64,000 nt of DNA from positions 9,816 through 73,815 of IMG/VR virus record IMGVR_UViG_3300025162_000046; one strand, 5' to 3'. The DNA is from a virus. Numbering within the stretch: the first letter of the stretch is position 1; each line of letters begins with the position of its first letter. Under the pieces are notes generated by a model. The model was not told the DNA's origin, searched no databases, and worked only from the letters and a program-made list of their open reading frames with translations. This document shows positions 7,656 through 52,172 of this stretch, piece by piece. The translations under genes were made by a program, and so were the position numbers.

Positions 7656-8159
7656 TCACTTTTTAATCTTTACAGAGATTGAAGATAAATCGATATCGTC
7701 ATCATCACCCGTATTCCTTTCAAATGGATTTTTTCCTACAGGGATGTTTACATTGATGGGAGTATACGCAAGATTCTCAGCAGGGTTGAGGGGGTTTTGT
7801 TCAGGCTGTGTTTCCTTTCGAAGTGCCTTTTGAATTTGACCTTGGATTGTTTTTAGATCATCTGAGCCCTTCATAGCAATTCGAGAAATTCTCATCTTTT
7901 CTCTATCATACAGCCAAAAAGTTCCATAAGTAGAAAGAGCCTCGTGTATTTGGGGTAGAATATCATATCCTGCGAGAGTGATAATAAGATCTAAGAATTT
8001 ATCGTGGGTCATCATTCGTCGATGCTCATCACCATCCGGGTAAATAAACACTTTTTCCCTACTGGGGTCGGAATAGAGAACCAAGAAAAAGAAATTTTGG
8101 ATCGGAGGGGACATTACATATAGGCTGTCAGGGGGCAAAGGAGATACAAATTCTTCCAT
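7656..8159 (-). CDS. Hypothetical protein
   Basis: 167 aa; GAGGAG RBS; ACTAATTA on the minus strand at 8206-8213. Confidence 0.7.
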   Translation of the reverse strand: MEEFVSPLPPDSLYVMSPPIQNFFFLVLYSDPSREKVFIYPDGDEHRRMMTHDKFLDLIITLAGYDILPQIHEALSTYGTFWLYDREKMRISRIAMKGSDDLKTIQGQIQKALRKETQPEQNPLNPAENLAYTPINVNIPVGKNPFERNTGDDDDIDLSSISVKIKK

Positions 8160-8333: not shown

Positions 8334-10406
8334 ATGGCATTTGCGTTTGGGGGCCTAAATGTGGCCTCAACAAAGAAAAGCCTTGCGGCAGAACTGATTC
8401 AAGATATTGTTCAAATCGAACACACCTCCGATAAAGGCCCCTATATTCTTGTGCTGCTTGATGAGTTCTACTACCCCGACAAATTAAAGAAGATCTCTAT
8501 CTTTCTTGAACGCAACGGAATACGGAATTATCGAGCGGTCAACGCGTTGAATTGTATCATTCCTAAAGAAGACCTTAAAGGAGAACTTTCTCGATTCTAT
8601 CGGATCAATCAATCCAAGTGGCGACAATACGCCGACGGCGCAAAAGGGGTTATCGCGGTTGGGGCCGCCCTCTATGCTATCAATCAAAGCGCGGACTTGA
8701 TGACCTTTGCTTTTTATGATATTATGTTTAACAAGCCCTACTTCTGGTCCCCCGATGCGGGCACTTGGGTATTTCCTATTGATACCTTCCAAGACATCTT
8801 CGCCCCTATTCAGCAACAGCACGGTGATAGCCATATGGAAAATCCAGGCCCTGTTAATACTTACAAAACACATTTTGCGGAGTATCAGTTCAAGCAGATC
8901 ACCTCTCTCCGCCTCCACCCCATAGTAGCCGAGAAACCCATTCTTATTAAGATAGAAAGCGTAGAAGCATTCAAAGAATTTGCCAAGCAGCACATGAATG
9001 AAGAAATACTAAGCACCGATCTTGAAACCTCAGGTCTTGATTTTATGAAATGTCGTATTGGGTGTATCACCTTTTCATTTGATGGAAAGACTGGTTATTT
9101 TGTCCCTTGGAAATTCGTAGACAAGCCTCTTCTCGATCGGATGTTCACCACTGCCAAAATAGTCGTCGGGGCCAATTTTAAATTCGATGTTAGATTCCTC
9201 TGGCACAATGGAATCCCGGCCGCTCGAGTTGATGAGGACACCGTTCAGATGGGGCATCTCATGAATGAGCAGCGCCTCAACGGCTTGAAGCCTTCTGCGT
9301 ATTACTACACCCCATTTGGAGGGTATGATAGAGAACTTGATCGCTACCGAGAGAAAACCGGCATAGATGATTTCACTCTTATTCCTGAGCACATTCTATT
9401 TCCCTATGCTACGATGGATGCGATTGTCACCTATCTCGTATATGTGGCCCTATTGGAACAGATGCGCTATGTCGACAAGACAATGCCTAATGAGAAAGAT
9501 CCTTCGTGGACAATAGAAAGATACTACCGAGAGATCATGATGCCTGCGGTCAACGCCTTCGCGGAAATAGAATATCGGGGAGTCTATGTCAATCGCGAAC
9601 TTCTCGCTCAATCACGACTCGCAATGCAAGTTGAGATTCAAGAGATTGAAAATGAACTCGCCGCGAAATGGAATGTGGGAGGGAATTTTGATTTCAATAG
9701 CGCGAATCAGTTGGGCAAACTTTTTGAGCGCTTGGGCTTTGAAGAACTCGGCAGGGCAAAGAATGGTGATTACAAAACTTCGGATGCTAGCCTTGAACGC
9801 TGGGCTAAAAGAGGCCATCCTGAGATTTCTCGGCTTCAAAGACTACGCACGCTCAATACTCTATTGAAAACCTTTATCAGCAAAGATGAAGAGTCGGAGA
9901 AAGGGTGGGAGAGTTATGTCAGACAGCATGAAGATGGTAGTTGGAGAATGCATCCTACCTTCAATGTCATGCGCACTGAATCGGGCCGCTGTAAATCAGA
10001 CTCCCCTAACATGCAGAATGTTCCGGCAGGGCATGGTGCTAACGGAGACTTGGCCTCCTTAGTAAAAAAATGTATAACTACTCCTGACCCCGAGGAATAC
10101 TATCTCAGCACTCTGGATTACGCATCGCTTCAAATGCGTCTTGCTGCAATCGACACTAATTTAAACGACGGCGGCAGGGATAAAAACCTTTACAACATCT
10201 ATCTCGATCCTAAAATGGGTGGGGATATGCATAGTCGCACAGGCTTCGGCGTATTTGCAGAAGGCCGAGATTTCGATTTAGAAATAATAGAAATTGAAGA
10301 AGACGGAAAACCCTCGAAGACCTTTTTCGGGGGGGAGTTCGTCAAGACTAAGAATAGAGGGGAGATACAAGCAAGAAACCTATCACCTTCTGATGTTTTA
10401 TTTTAA
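8334..10406 (+). CDS. polA: Family A DNA polymerase, N-terminal part (3'-5' exonuclease, thumb, motif A); split gene
   Basis: ExoI DLETSG, ExoII ANFKFD, ExoIII YATMDA, TESGRCKSDSPNMQN, motif A DYASLQMR, DMHSRT; motifs B and C absent; ends in a Hint-like tail. Confidence 0.9.
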   Translation: MAFAFGGLNVASTKKSLAAELIQDIVQIEHTSDKGPYILVLLDEFYYPDKLKKISIFLERNGIRNYRAVNALNCIIPKEDLKGELSRFYRINQSKWRQYADGAKGVIAVGAALYAINQSADLMTFAFYDIMFNKPYFWSPDAGTWVFPIDTFQDIFAPIQQQHGDSHMENPGPVNTYKTHFAEYQFKQITSLRLHPIVAEKPILIKIESVEAFKEFAKQHMNEEILSTDLETSGLDFMKCRIGCITFSFDGKTGYFVPWKFVDKPLLDRMFTTAKIVVGANFKFDVRFLWHNGIPAARVDEDTVQMGHLMNEQRLNGLKPSAYYYTPFGGYDRELDRYREKTGIDDFTLIPEHILFPYATMDAIVTYLVYVALLEQMRYVDKTMPNEKDPSWTIERYYREIMMPAVNAFAEIEYRGVYVNRELLAQSRLAMQVEIQEIENELAAKWNVGGNFDFNSANQLGKLFERLGFEELGRAKNGDYKTSDASLERWAKRGHPEISRLQRLRTLNTLLKTFISKDEESEKGWESYVRQHEDGSWRMHPTFNVMRTESGRCKSDSPNMQNVPAGHGANGDLASLVKKCITTPDPEEYYLSTLDYASLQMRLAAIDTNLNDGGRDKNLYNIYLDPKMGGDMHSRTGFGVFAEGRDFDLEIIEIEEDGKPSKTFFGGEFVKTKNRGEIQARNLSPSDVLF

Positions 10407-10418
10407 GGGGGCTCTTCA

Positions 10419-10814
10419 ATGCCGGTGAATGGAGTTTACAAGATACTGATTGTTGACGATAGCGTATCTATCGTAACTCTAATACAACAAATTTTTAGCC
10501 GAAGACCTCAATTCTCAACCATCGTCGCCTATGATGCAGAAACGGCTATTACCCTTATTGGCTTAGAAGATCCAGATGTTGTTCTGTTGGATTTAAGTCT
10601 TCCTCAGATAGACGGGATTAAGGCATGTCGCCAAATCAAAAAGGCGCACCCATTGTTACCAATTCTTGTTATCACAGGAGAACTAGGACGCTTTTCTAGT
10701 GAGCAGGCTCATGAGGCCGGCGCTGACGATTTTATTTCCAAGCCCTTTAATAACGAGCAACTCGTATCGCATGTCAAACATTATTTACATCTAACATCAC
10801 TTAATGTAACTTAG
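10419..10814 (+). CDS. Single-domain response regulator (CheY-like receiver)
   Basis: ILIVDD, VLLDLSLPQIDG (phosphoacceptor Asp), ILVITG, GADDFISKPF. Confidence 0.92.
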   Translation: MPVNGVYKILIVDDSVSIVTLIQQIFSRRPQFSTIVAYDAETAITLIGLEDPDVVLLDLSLPQIDGIKACRQIKKAHPLLPILVITGELGRFSSEQAHEAGADDFISKPFNNEQLVSHVKHYLHLTSLNVT

Positions 10815-13841: not shown

Positions 13842-13936
13842 CCATTGAGAAGGTTCGTAATGAAGATGTGTACGATCTATCCGTCGAAGGAACTCATAAT
13901 TTCTTCGGCAATGGAATGGTTGTACATAACTGTGGT
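13835..13936 (+). CDS. nrdJ: Exon 1 of the nrdJ C-part: split intein C-fragment (32 aa) plus Cys-Gly extein
   Basis: GGGAGG RBS then GTG 13835: (M)LTIEKVRNEDVYDLSVEGTHNFFGNGMVVHN|CG; frame differs from IntN; in-frame TAG at 13814. Confidence 0.88.
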
Positions 13937-14171
13937 GGAATTTAGCGCCTCAGTATAATCACAGGGTGAATTGCTGGAAAGCTAAGCGGAAGTAAGCTAA
14001 TCAGCAGCCAAGCGCGGTAGGGATACCGCGAAGGTTCAGAGACTAACAGCCGAGTCCAGATCGGACAGTAATGCTGACACGAGCGCCCTGCTCACGAAAG
14101 TGATGAAGATATAGTCCGATACTCCAGTGAAAATTGGAGAGCTATGATAAAGAGCATAGCAATAACAGATG
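13937..14171 (+). ncRNA. Group I self-splicing intron (235 nt, no ORF) in nrdJ
   Basis: 5' exon ends in U, intron ends in G; core elements AATTGCTGGAAA (P), AATCAGCAGCC (Q), GTTCAGAGACTAA (R), AAGATATAGTCC (S); P3 CAGGGTG/CGCCCTG; P10 GGAATTT pairs with exon AAATTCC; removal restores C-G-E-I-P. Confidence 0.93.
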
Positions 14172-48577: not shown

Positions 48578-49003
48578 ATGATTACTCTAAACAGTTTGAC
48601 TATCAAAAACTTTATCTGCGTTGAGTCCGCCGATTTCGATTTTATCAACAACTATATCACAGTTTTCTTTGGGGCGAATGGTAGCGGCAAATGCATCGAA
48701 GGCTCTACAAGAATCAAAACCAAACAATTCGGGGAACTCCCAATTAAAGAACTTTTTAAGAAATTGGAAGTTTCACCTTCTGTTAAAATGGCTCTTCCCA
48801 AAGAAGGACTTGAAGTTTGGACTGATGAGGGGTGGAAATCCATTGAGGCATTCTGGATCACCCCGCCCGAGCCTTTGTGGGAACTGGAATTAGATGATGG
48901 TATAGTTCTGCGAGCCAGTGCAGACCATCGTGTAATGACGCAGCGCGGCTGGGTGAAGCTAAAGGATCTCCAGGAATCAGATGAGATTCTGCGGGAAGAA
49001 TGA
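48578..49003 (+). CDS. sbcC: SbcC/Rad50 (gp46-like) N-terminal 38 aa fused to split intein N-fragment
   Basis: LTIKNF...GANGSGK, then Cys1 at 48692 (CIEGSTRI...RASADHRVMTQRGWVKLKDL) and a stop. Confidence 0.9.
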   Translation: MITLNSLTIKNFICVESADFDFINNYITVFFGANGSGKCIEGSTRIKTKQFGELPIKELFKKLEVSPSVKMALPKEGLEVWTDEGWKSIEAFWITPPEPLWELELDDGIVLRASADHRVMTQRGWVKLKDLQESDEILREE

Positions 49004-49048
49004 CAATCTATCCGGATACTCCCTACTAATTAATTCAGGGGATTTATC

Positions 49049-50155
49049 ATGGATTTACAAACTCTTGCAAAAAATCTTTATGGTGAGGATTATTCTTTAT
49101 GGCAACTCGGTTCGTTGAGGCGACAACTACAAAAAAAGAAAATAACCGAAGTTGATATTACTTGGAGAGAAGAAGAAAATGGTTTCGGCGCTTGGGATAT
49201 GATTCATGGTATCCCTTTATCTTGTAATACTTATTGGCATAGCTATGCTTGCACTTCTTGTGGTAAAAAAATTATTGATATAGATCGAAATCATAAACGC
49301 CGGGCTAATCCTACCCTTTGCGGGCATTGCAGCAAATCAAAAACTTTAACAGAAGTGAATCGAAATTCCAATAAAGTAAAAAACGCAGAGATTTTTGCTG
49401 ACCCTCTTCTAGGCTCTATTCGGAAAGAAAAACTAAGAGAAAATAGGATTCGAATAAACCAAACTGTGATGGCAGATTTTATTCGAAACTTGTCGCCGGA
49501 GAGAAAAGAACAAATAGCCATTCAGAAGAAACAAACTTGGGGGGCTCGTCCAGTAGAGGAAAAAAAGGAAATCAATAAAACTCGCAATGGCTATCTTTAT
49601 AAAAGTGAAAAGGAGATACAAGAACGAGTACAAAGAGGGGTAGAGACTAAGAAAAAAAACTTAGCTAAACTGTCCTCGGAAGAGATCCGACAAAAAACCT
49701 TAGAGAGGGTGGCAAAAATGAAAGCTACCATTCGATCTAAACCTAAAGACCTGAGGTTTAATCACCCTGAGCGTAGATATGTAAAGGGGAAGCAAGGTGA
49801 GGTAGGGGGTGTTTATTTTCAATCATCTTACGAAGAAGCCGTATTACAGTTTTGTTGCATGAAAATGTATAAGATACAAAGAGGGCCGGCACTTGAATAC
49901 TATAATCCAATAGGAAAAAGTATTTCTCTTTATTTTGTGGACTTTTTGATAAACGATACTCTTTTAGTAGAGATAAAAAGTAATTATACTTGGGATCAAA
50001 ATATAGAAATCAATAAGGCGAAAGAAAGATGCGCTCAGTCGTATGCACAAGAACAAGGGTTGACCTATCTGACGCTTATATTATCCAAGGAGGATATCAA
50101 GGATGTCAACAAGATTCTCGAAAATACGTTCAATAAAGAATTTAGAGAGAACTGA
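49049..50155 (+). CDS. Free-standing endonuclease (zinc ribbon plus C-terminal TnsA-like PD-(D/E)XK) between split intein halves
   Basis: CTSC...CGHC; FQSSYE...YFVDFLINDTLLVEIKS. Confidence 0.8.
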   Translation: MDLQTLAKNLYGEDYSLWQLGSLRRQLQKKKITEVDITWREEENGFGAWDMIHGIPLSCNTYWHSYACTSCGKKIIDIDRNHKRRANPTLCGHCSKSKTLTEVNRNSNKVKNAEIFADPLLGSIRKEKLRENRIRINQTVMADFIRNLSPERKEQIAIQKKQTWGARPVEEKKEINKTRNGYLYKSEKEIQERVQRGVETKKKNLAKLSSEEIRQKTLERVAKMKATIRSKPKDLRFNHPERRYVKGKQGEVGGVYFQSSYEEAVLQFCCMKMYKIQRGPALEYYNPIGKSISLYFVDFLINDTLLVEIKSNYTWDQNIEINKAKERCAQSYAQEQGLTYLTLILSKEDIKDVNKILENTFNKEFREN

Positions 50156-52172
50156 AAATTGCTATGATATTCAGGTCGCAGATATTCAGCGGTACTTCTC
50201 TAATGGAATTGTAAGCCATAATTCTAGTATTTTTGAGGCCATCGCCTTATGCTGGACAGAGCGCAGGAGAGGCGACTCCTATAAGGATTTCATCAAGCAC
50301 GGGACTGATTCTGCAGAGATTCACCTTGTTGCCAGTATTCACGGCGAACCCATTCAATTCGATGTGGAGATTCGTGATAAGAAAGGGGCGACTCCTTTTC
50401 AACGAACTATCACTTATAAAAAAGAGAAGTATGTAAATTCAGAGTGCACTACGCTTCTCACCTCCTTCGATATTGATTATCTCCAACACATTATGTTCTC
50501 TATGCAAGGTGAGAATAACATTACTGATCTCAAACCCTCCGAAAGAACTAAACTTCTCAAGCGTATTTTCAATTTCGAGTTTGAATCTCAATTGAGCCAA
50601 CTTGATAAATTGGTTGAACAAGAAGAACAGAACAGCCTCGTGCTCAAAACTCGCGTTGATGTTTTATCTCATATGAAATTTGAATATGAGCAAGCGGAGC
50701 AAACCCTTACTCTCGACAAGCGCAGCGAAATAGAAAATCGCATTACCGAGATCGATGAAATCATAAGAGTGCAAGAACAAAATCAACTTCTTCAATCCGA
50801 AACTTCTCATCGACTCGAAAGTCTCCGCGCCCAAGGTCAAGCTGCGTCAGCACGCAAGCATTCTATCGAAAAAGATATCAGTGACCTTAATAGTTCGTAT
50901 ACTCGACTACTCGGGGATAAGAATCGACATAGTCAAGCATTACTTACTCTCCCCGATTCCGTGAAACTCGAAGAAGAAATCAAAGAGAAAACCGCGGCAA
51001 TTGAATCGTTCAAGATTCTCGTGGAGCAAAATCGTCTTCTTATTCAAGAGAAGGAAAACAATCTCGGATCTCGTCAAAGCCGTATCCTTGAACTTAGGAA
51101 TCACATCGTAGCACATAAGCAAGGCATTTGTCCTCAGTGTGGGCAAGACACTCATCCTGAAACCGTTCCTGAACTTGAGACCTCTTTGGAATCAGTTGAA
51201 CAATTGTATGAGGAGCTCCTCTCACAAAAAATGATGCTTGAGACCGCTGAGAAAGGTGCCGAGAGAAACATCTCCACCTATCAGGCGGCAATACCTAATC
51301 TTAGAGAAAAAATCAAATCGTCTGCGGATATGAAAATCCAGTTTGAGAGCATTTTCAAAACCATCGAAGAAAGCACCCAGCAAACAAACGGAACCATTGA
51401 AATTCGAAAATCCACTTTGTTGGAAGTCGAGAATCAGATCAAAGAACTCGAACAGCAAATTGAAGAGATCTCTCCTAAATTGGTTCGAATGATTCCTACC
51501 ACATCTCTTCTCAGTGAGAAGAGTGGGTTAGCTAATCAGGTTCAGAGGCATCTTGCTGTCATCGCTCGCAACGAAGTAATTGAGCGTAAAAATATAGAGA
51601 TGAAACAAAAAGAAGAAGGGAACAAACAACTACTGATAGACCTCAACCGGCAACAAAACGATTTGCTGCTATCGACGAATAATTATAAAGACGCGAAGCG
51701 CATATTGGAAGTAGACCTACCCAATTATATCATTGTCAAAGCGTGCTCAAAACTTGAAAAACATATCAATCATTTTATCTCTGAGGTCAAGGAAGGGATG
51801 GTAGTTAGGCTATTCCAAGCGCGCTCGGGAGTTGAATTTTTCTATTCCCCAGTAGGAGAAGTAGCAAATTCTGAAGATTGGACCTCTACAAAAATGGCAT
51901 CGGGATTTGAACGGGAATTGCTATCAGCCGCGTGGAGAGTAGCGTTAGCAAGGGCTTATAATCTACACGCGCTTATGCTTGATGAGGTGGATAGCGCGGC
52001 TAACACCTTCTCATCTGAAAAAATGTTTAGAGAGATCGCTAATCTCACCGGCTTTGAGCAGCTCTTCATAGTGAGTCACAAGCCTGAAGTAGTCGATATT
52101 TTATTACAGGAAAATGAGAGAGTGACCGCGTATTTCGTCCAAGATGGTATCTTTACTCGTCAAGAATACTAA
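50103..52172 (+). CDS. sbcC: Split intein C-fragment (40 aa) fused to SbcC/Rad50 C-part
   Basis: AGGAGG RBS; KIRSIK...CYDIQV...YFSNGIVSHN|SSIFEAI; coiled coils, CPQC hook, ASGFE signature, LMLDEVD, IVSH. Confidence 0.92.
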   Translation: MSTRFSKIRSIKNLERTENCYDIQVADIQRYFSNGIVSHNSSIFEAIALCWTERRRGDSYKDFIKHGTDSAEIHLVASIHGEPIQFDVEIRDKKGATPFQRTITYKKEKYVNSECTTLLTSFDIDYLQHIMFSMQGENNITDLKPSERTKLLKRIFNFEFESQLSQLDKLVEQEEQNSLVLKTRVDVLSHMKFEYEQAEQTLTLDKRSEIENRITEIDEIIRVQEQNQLLQSETSHRLESLRAQGQAASARKHSIEKDISDLNSSYTRLLGDKNRHSQALLTLPDSVKLEEEIKEKTAAIESFKILVEQNRLLIQEKENNLGSRQSRILELRNHIVAHKQGICPQCGQDTHPETVPELETSLESVEQLYEELLSQKMMLETAEKGAERNISTYQAAIPNLREKIKSSADMKIQFESIFKTIEESTQQTNGTIEIRKSTLLEVENQIKELEQQIEEISPKLVRMIPTTSLLSEKSGLANQVQRHLAVIARNEVIERKNIEMKQKEEGNKQLLIDLNRQQNDLLLSTNNYKDAKRILEVDLPNYIIVKACSKLEKHINHFISEVKEGMVVRLFQARSGVEFFYSPVGEVANSEDWTSTKMASGFERELLSAAWRVALARAYNLHALMLDEVDSAANTFSSEKMFREIANLTGFEQLFIVSHKPEVVDILLQENERVTAYFVQDGIFTRQEY

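Follow-up and report, generated by a model that had tools for sequence, protein, structure and literature searches.

A family-A DNA polymerase encoded in two pieces by phages and probably held together by a splicing-dead split-intein relic

How can a phage polymerase work when its gene stops in the middle of the catalytic domain, and what is the extra segment on which that gene ends? The questions are raised by an open reading frame (ORF) at positions 8334-10406 of a 64,000-nt stretch of viral DNA (positions 9,816 to 73,815 of IMG/VR record IMGVR_UViG_3300025162_000046; hereafter the window), which encodes the N-terminal part of a family-A DNA polymerase (PolA) followed by an acidic 47-residue tail. 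The best explanation, to which we assign a probability of roughly two in three, is that an uncultured phage makes a two-chain PolA whose halves are held together by a splicing-dead relic of a Hint domain, the relic being divided between the tail of one chain and the head of the other. The ORF is organized as follows.

8334..10406, + strand: PolA N-subunit gene, part of a split family-A DNA polymerase (690 aa); ATG at 8334 and TAA at 10404-10406; assigned by Pfam and by homologous clusters with the same end
8334..8951, + strand: N-terminal domain of unassigned function, family-specific (aa 1-206); conserved in the family, with 44% mean pairwise identity
8952..9464, + strand: 3′-5′ exonuclease domain (aa 207-377); PF01612, E = 2.7e-8; DLETS at nt 9018 and NFKFD at nt 9174
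9600..10256, + strand: thumb, palm motif A and first fingers helix, the final native polymerase part; PF00476, E = 6.8e-22
10263..10403, + strand: splicing-dead Hint relic, N part, an acidic 47-aa tail (aa 644-690); assigned by hhalign, the NrdJ-1 match and fold matches
10404..10406, + strand: stop codon TAA; relatives have TAA, TGA or TAG at the same place

The 3′-5′ exonuclease domain and a palm motif A of the D-Y-S-Q-I-E-L-R type mark the protein as a family-A polymerase. The match to PF00476 (DNA_pol_A) spans aa 423-641 and covers profile positions 3-195 of 381 only. Motif A reads LDYASLQ at aa 594 (nt 10113-10133), where the sequence is LDYASLQMRLAA, and the last native element is DMHSRTGFGVF (aa 631-641, nt 10224-10256). 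Neither motif B (R-x-x-x-K-x-x-x-F-x-x-x-Y-G, the O helix) nor motif C (H-D-E/S) is present in the 690-aa ORF, which ends instead on the tail GRDFDLEIIEIEEDGKPSKTFFGGEFVKTKNRGEIQARNLSPSDVLF, with zero Cys and zero His. The N-terminal domain (aa 1-206) has no Pfam match, and its counterpart is confidently folded in a model of a fused relative, P0053. A second piece of PF00476 was looked for in all six frames and found neither in the window nor elsewhere in the 73,815-bp record; CheckV puts the completeness of this record at 37%. Among GenBank phages no close relative was found, the best tblastn identity being ~27%, with query coverage below 80% in every match.

Relatives reveal where the rest of such a polymerase resides. 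A protein search returned ~75 clusters of ~690 aa that are 35-84% identical to the window protein and share its end point, and 71 of these clusters carry a ~48-residue tail after the DxHSxT helix. A separate gene with motifs B and C (the C-gene, as opposed to the N-gene of the window) is present in all six related phage records longer than 120 kb. In the first five records examined, two of which have direct terminal repeats, the C-ORF is 265-321 aa long, matches PolA profile positions ~192-376 and contains RQxAKxxNF and HDS; the sixth record, L102, has the same arrangement. Two more N/C pairs each lie on one contig (292,485 bp and 274,414 bp); P0018 and P0108 are a same-contig pair, and the genomes of complete relatives measure ~280-306 kb. 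Furthermore, all 24 aligned C-halves start with M-L-K-I-x-K-x-T-V-x-R-x-I-T-L-x-E-F and then continue as native polymerase, which indicates that the break point is constant throughout the family.

The two genes occur in various arrangements. In G004, a complete genome of 305.8 kb with terminal repeats and an N-half 53% identical to the window's, they are on opposite strands and 208 kb apart, and the spacing is 40 kb in G006 and 83 kb in G008. A SegE-like GIY-YIG endonuclease ORF lies between the polymerase halves of G005, and 402-aa and 145-aa ORFs plus one more ORF separate the N- and C-genes of L102. In G007 (L098 1207-2091; L015 about 3001), both genes are on one strand and the N-gene begins 12 nt after the C-gene ends, a reversed but adjacent gene order that a simple broken gene does not explain.

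These observations bear on the plainest alternative, that the ORF is a pseudogene left by truncation, or an artefact of assembly or of a frameshift, and that the phage uses another polymerase. Such a reading would account for the absence of a C-half from the 73.8-kb record, but the record is only ~37% complete, the ORF is conserved over its full length, the same end recurs in 71 clusters with three different stop codons, and C-genes occur in 6/6 records longer than 120 kb. We give it next to no weight: the split is real, and a pseudogene is excluded. The window phage's own C-gene, for a subunit of ~270-320 aa with motifs B and C, is probably located elsewhere, in the ~63% of the genome outside the record. 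The first-pass annotation, made from the sequence alone, had placed the end of the polymerase after DMHSRTGFGVF, before motifs B and C, had seen no C-terminal half in the window, and had proposed a two-subunit PolA. The end point agrees with the Pfam match, which stops at 195/381; extending the six-frame PF00476 search, and with it the hunt for an ORF carrying motifs B and C, to the full record leaves the outcome unchanged; and the proposal of two subunits is borne out by the separate C-genes of the relatives.

Some further features of these genes were noted in passing. A TTG start at L095 1207 gives the G004 C-gene the conserved MLKIT... N-terminus, and gene callers begin this gene at an internal ATG (P0105, 291 aa), losing what we describe below as the relic head. 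The 402-aa and 145-aa ORFs of L102 (7686-9328, - strand) look, by eye from their translations, like an IS200/IS605 tnpB/tnpA pair. The small conserved ORF at window positions 7656-8159 (- strand) looks by eye like L095 515-997 (- strand), beside the G004 C-gene, which hints that the two polymerase genes exchanged places relative to a fixed neighbour ORF.

What, then, is the tail? The record holds two genuine split inteins, one in ribonucleotide reductase (RNR) and one in a rad50/sbcC-like gene, and the tail resembles the ends of their N-terminal halves (IntN). When a profile of 36 tail sequences is compared with an alignment of the window's two IntN, hhalign returns a probability of 92%, P = 6e-7 and a score of 35.3, placing tail columns 14-46 on IntN columns 74-105 of 108 with the same end column; the best score among 150 column shuffles is 14.9, and the reversed tail scores 7.4. 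A hidden Markov model (HMM) of the tail, built without the window's own cluster and run against the 1,041 six-frame ORFs of the window, matches, besides the PolA tail, the ends of the two ORFs that carry an IntN (E = 3.5e-4 and 4.9e-3) and no others, the next-best ORF having E = 2.5. In addition, when a tail profile is searched against the PDB (177,635 distinct sequences), the top match is the NrdJ-1 split intein (E = 4.3e-4; next E > 0.6), with NrdJ-1 residues 84-106, PVYTKNRGYVRADELTDDDELVV, aligned to the tail end. The end of the tail falls at the same aligned position as the ends of three real IntN.

Unsplit relatives reveal the remainder of the element. Five of them (987-1048 aa) carry the tail in frame, then IKITRISRLDEYREITEEEF... 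and motif B; because the tail is followed in frame by the head sequence of the C-genes in these fused forms, tail and head make up one unit of ~60 residues. In the distant unsplit relatives L028, L030, L037, P0087, P0090 and P0092, ...HSFTAQPIFCPEM runs directly into TLEEFLSKKK..., with nothing in between, and the existence of relatives without the ~60-residue unit identifies the unit as an insertion. An AlphaFold2 model of the fused P0053 is a complete Klenow-type enzyme with a predicted local distance difference test score (pLDDT) of 90.9. In this model the insert (661-720) is all-beta, with pLDDT 93-96, and its final long strand (707-720) is the exact start sequence of the split C-genes.

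The insert modelled alone, with pLDDT 92.4, was compared with known structures. The first 44 listed Foldseek matches in the PDB are inteins, hedgehog Hint domains or an intein-encoded homing endonuclease (E 0.026-0.8, template modelling score ~0.65), and the top 26 rows of a structure search of 48,161 chains are all inteins, hedgehog Hint domains or intein-like (Z 7.5-3.3; the 4lx3 row, Z 3.4, has 42 residues aligned only). Specifically, gp41-1 is matched with Z 7.0 and 27% identity, model residues 1-61 lying on chain residues 39-104, and the fold alignment with NrdJ-1 covers residues 55-128. The Hint fold is found for the retained part only, one lobe equivalent to gp41-1 residues 39-104. The relic corresponds to the latter half of an IntN joined to the opening strand of the C-terminal intein half (IntC), which together form the Hint lobe without the splice junctions.

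Could the tail instead be an ordinary beta-rich fingers insertion, SH3-like or similar, that does not derive from an intein and was cut at its edge by chance? Pfam Hint models are silent, all structural Z values are below 8 and so under the tool's safe range, and G-x-h-x-A-x-x-L-x-x-x-D-x-L is a common beta-hairpin motif. However, the PDB-wide sequence search has a split intein as its top match, aligned at the extreme end of IntN, and Hint proteins stand almost alone in both fold searches (48,161 and 350,542 chains). Moreover, the gene is broken at the canonical split site, the head of the C-gene is IntC-like and basic, and genuine split inteins and homing endonucleases abound in the phage and its relatives. 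An origin outside inteins is accordingly judged very improbable, and common descent from a split intein is by far the best reading; the case is made by the near-uniform identity of the matches, the exact register and the sequence match together, not by any single score.

The relic cannot splice, since every splicing residue is missing. The block A nucleophile is absent, the insert starting directly after ...GVFAEGRDF with ~40 N-terminal Hint residues gone, and the block B T-x-x-H is absent too, the aligned position being F-F-G-G-E. The C-genes of relatives have the head consensus M-L-K-I-x-K-R-T-V-x-R-x-I, then T-L-E-E-F...R-Q-x-A-K-x-x-N-F-G; ~13 IntC-like residues are followed by the native T-L-E-E-F, with no block F/G and no His-Asn.

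G008 places real and dead intein junctions ~25 residues apart, with the same polymerase in three far-apart pieces. The N-piece (L033) ends in the relic tail without splicing residues. The middle piece (L109 1501-1926, + strand, 141 aa) consists of a basic head, MITIKKEKKNRPIT, 22 native residues (…LRKNAKQ) and a canonical IntN, CFPVTANTEVLT…, with Cys1 and an SWAH block B, while the C-piece (L108) begins with a canonical IntC that ends …THN before CNFG, in motif B. Inteins of the polymerase family are located in the exonuclease motif (P0071) or in motif B (P0093, L065 and G008), and no active-intein allele was found at the exact relic site.

An atypical yet active split intein that ligates the halves would need a nucleophile after the junction, and the conserved Thr/Ser that follows the relic is a possible +1 residue. 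The same Thr/Ser is, however, present in insert-less relatives, and the rest of the machinery is wanting on both sides: the tail has no N-terminal nucleophile, TxxH, Cys or His, and the head offers only ~13 IntC-like residues without block F/G or His-Asn. The fused forms, moreover, retain the module in the mature reading frame, and G008 shows by contrast a working split intein in the same protein. Ligation by the relic can hardly be credited. As to what the first-pass annotation had said of the tail, its by-eye alignment with the ends of the window's two IntN is upheld by hhalign, well above the shuffles, and the profile comparison with Hint sequences that it suggested puts NrdJ-1 at the top among PDB sequences. 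Its report of no Cys1/block A and no TxxH is confirmed, and its non-splicing reading agrees with the partner genes in relatives, which are without block F/G or a terminal His-Asn. The description as half-intein-like stands in part: the tail does derive from a Hint domain and stops at the canonical break, but it represents the latter half of an IntN alone, less than a whole half-intein.

If the relic does not splice, does it still bring the chains together? The halves of natural split inteins are held to associate via their two longest antiparallel strands, which have opposite charge; in NrdJ-1, IMPDH-1, NrdA-2 and cyanobacterial DnaE the N-part is the negative one and the C-part the positive one (PMC2677866). 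The PolA relic shows the same features of a split intein, with the break between blocks N4 and C2 and opposite charges on the long strands. The mean net charge is -4.2 for 71 tails and +4.2 for 29 heads (range +2 to +7); the window tail has a charge of -3, and its first 16 residues -5. At a mean pairwise identity of 45%, the tail is nearly as well conserved as the complete protein (50%) and on a level with the N-domain (44%).

The polymerase is thus divided within a split-intein relic of ~60 residues, of the NrdJ-1/gp41-1 kind, that retains a long strand at either end, one from each chain. By the literature on split inteins, these would be the long antiparallel strands whose opposite charges drive the halves together. 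We propose that the acidic tail and the basic head zip into a Hint lobe as in the fused model, and that the zipped relic would set the first fingers helix beside the O helix, bringing fingers and palm into one active site. Judging from the fold model, the conservation and the charge complementarity, the chains most likely bind via the relic, and the relic most likely matters for assembly.

Alternatively, the relic may be a tolerated scar that is not precisely deletable and has no docking role, the chains meeting through the native fingers/palm interface. In line with this, five unsplit relatives carry the same module in frame, and intein-free split genes function, such as phage Aeh1 NrdA and T4-like gp43 (cited in PMC2677866). 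An unselected remnant, however, would be expected to decay or shrink across a divergence of 35-85% identity, whereas the tail is conserved like the rest of the enzyme over >40 diverged sequences. Tails have remained acidic and heads strongly basic in the old split lineages, whereas the head equivalents of the five fused forms are approximately neutral (-3 to +3, hand count). We regard a mere scar as unlikely, and keep to a relic that docks the two chains.

How the split arose was addressed with a phylogeny of 74 N-parts, built under LG+G4 by a quick IQ-TREE search, with three insert-less relatives as the root. Among the insert-bearing sequences, each lineage that branches off at the base is split. 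The five fused forms, which carry the insert, are interleaved with split ones inside a single 17-row subclade, and the tree calls for at least 4 state changes. Forcing the fused forms to the outgroup lowers the log-likelihood by 432 (approximately unbiased (AU) test, p = 9e-81). The simplest course would begin with an insert-less polymerase fractured once by an intein/homing-endonuclease element, the splicing lobe being lost or never brought in. The halves would then have dispersed through the genome, and in one subclade adjacent halves would have re-fused, leaving the relic as an in-frame insert. The tail as an old fingers insertion that predates the split was also considered, and was rejected on the existence of insert-less relatives, the basal position of split forms and the AU test.

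Several points weigh against a docking relic of intein origin. Neither the tail nor any of 15 insert sequences is recognized by the Pfam Hint models, even at E 5-10, and a six-frame scan of the record with PF14890 at E up to 10 matches only the four real intein pieces; single short diverged sequences fall below Pfam's sensitivity. The individual fold scores are middling (Foldseek E ≥ 0.03; Z ≤ 7.5). The tail profile has no similarity to the G008 motif-B IntN (hhalign P = 0.08), and by this sequence comparison the likeness of the tail appears confined to one intein lineage and does not extend to all IntN. The window phage's own C-gene was not found in the 73.8-kb record, a genome fragment (~37%). 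The five unsplit relatives keep the module in frame, so that it is tolerated, and perhaps useful, without docking, and the native fingers/palm interface alone might suffice for assembly, as in other 'genes in pieces'. On the evolutionary side, the group for the AU test was named with the tree already in view, the tree comes from a quick search and has long outgroup branches, and homing could spread a split allele sideways, blurring the polarity.

The polymerase family is a hot spot for fracture events. L102 (4001-7632, + strand) has a second break, in the exonuclease domain after KFDVKYLW, with a 69-aa extra tail, a 387-aa DUF7487 ORF and a C-piece head, MIKIIERVEDTKDIW (which starts MIKIIERV). 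P0139 is split at the exonuclease break too, and its near identity to the unsplit P0061 indicates that this break is recent. Compared by hhalign, the 69-aa tail has no similarity to IntN (P = 0.47), a weak one to the PolA tail (P = 0.008) and none to PDB inteins, and no relatives of it were found in the protein database. The DUF7487 ORF resembles, by eye, the TnsA-like ORF in the window's fractured rad50/sbcC gene. P0192, P0215, P0197 and P0187 are polymerase superfamily members that are cut at other places and have MIKI/MIKS heads, those of P0192 and P0215 (MIKI…) lying right before motif A; contiguous beta-rich inserts at the motif A/B site also occur among these four.

The surroundings of the window's N-gene include, upstream and on the other strand, a DnaG-type primase and the conserved small ORF. 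Downstream, 13 nt past the PolA stop, a gene at 10419-10814 (+ strand) encodes a stand-alone response-regulator receiver domain (PF00072, E = 5.6e-28), with no kinase or output domain nearby. As for the window's genuine inteins, the IntC ORF of RNR ends ...VVHN, then CGGI and stop, and a group I intron at 13927-14139 (+ strand; Rfam RF00028, 75.8 bits, E = 1.9e-17) follows directly, RNR resuming at 14169 with MEIPMPAYSLCCLGALNL; with the intron in this position, the active-site loop needs RNA splicing plus protein trans-splicing. The rad50/sbcC-like gene at 48578-52172 (+ strand) is a classical fractured gene, in which Walker A and an IntN (103 aa) are followed by a 368-aa ORF and then by an IntC (...VSHN before SS) with the remaining ATPase; the 368-aa ORF has a weak match to a TnsA-like endonuclease (PF08722, E = 2e-4).

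The split PolA illustrates one way in which an essential enzyme may survive a cut by selfish DNA through its catalytic domain, the association half of an intein being kept and the chemistry discarded. We put at even odds a broader proposal, in which phages carry portable splicing-dead split-Hint clasps of ~45 acidic plus ~13 basic residues that let homing-endonuclease cassettes fracture essential genes non-lethally and are then selected as docking domains beside active split inteins of one and the same enzyme, as in G008. A natural, charge-steered heterodimerisation pair of ~47 + 13 residues would also be a candidate orthogonal assembly tag to set beside active split inteins. For annotation, the N-genes of this family are easily taken for truncated pseudogenes, and gene callers start the C-genes at an internal ATG. 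Surveys of viral diversity based on PolA that read motif B residues would miss or mis-type such phages, whose motif B is on another gene. A search of the literature for a natural splicing-dead intein relic that serves as a subunit clasp found none.

The closest known systems are the 'fractured genes', in which split inteins (NrdJ-1, gp41-1, IMPDH-1 etc.) flank a free-standing homing-endonuclease gene in phage-like DNA (Dassa et al. 2009, PMC2677866). As in those genes, the gene concerned encodes a phage replication enzyme and is broken at the canonical endonuclease-insertion/split site, and the strands have opposite charges (N negative, C positive); the best sequence match is to NrdJ-1 and the best-identity fold match to gp41-1, and G005 retains a GIY-YIG endonuclease gene between the halves. 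Unlike in fractured genes, the splicing residues and the junction-bearing lobe are missing, so that the product stays as two chains; the next gene in the window encodes a receiver-domain protein and not a homing endonuclease, and the halves are up to 208 kb apart in the clade. The same study (PMC2677866) mentions, and leaves uninterpreted, an SbcD-like locus that has no intein but 'inserted regions' of 25 aa and 9 aa next to its fracture; this locus may represent the same phenomenon as the PolA relic.

Non-covalent assembly also has precedents in 'genes in pieces', such as Aeh1 nrdA-a/mobE/nrdA-b and the split gp43 (PolB) of T4-like phages (cited in PMC2677866). There, as here, an essential replication enzyme is made as two non-covalent chains after invasion by a selfish element; the parts of the source that we consulted mention no intein-derived module for them, whereas here a conserved Hint relic of 47 + 13 residues straddles the break. 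PolA itself is known as an exo/pol split in T7-like cyanophages (S-SBP1/S-TIP37 type), called the first PolA split (Czernecki et al. 2023, PMC10201439; PMC12695635). That enzyme likewise is a family-A polymerase from two genes, but it is divided between its exonuclease and polymerase domains, whereas the cut described here is within the catalytic domain, between motifs A and B and inside an inserted Hint relic. With the exo/pol split called the first in the family in 2023 (PMC10201439), a PolA split inside the polymerase domain is apparently undescribed in print.

In the split inteins of cyanobacterial DnaE and Nanoarchaeum PolB, distant polymerase halves are joined by complementary intein halves, as we propose for PolA, but those inteins splice their halves into one chain, which the PolA relic cannot do. 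Engineered splicing-dead split inteins, which are full-size, point-mutated and laboratory-made, serve as affinity and dimerisation tags. Association without chemistry would be common to these tags and the PolA relic; the relic, however, is natural and minimal, with half of the fold missing.

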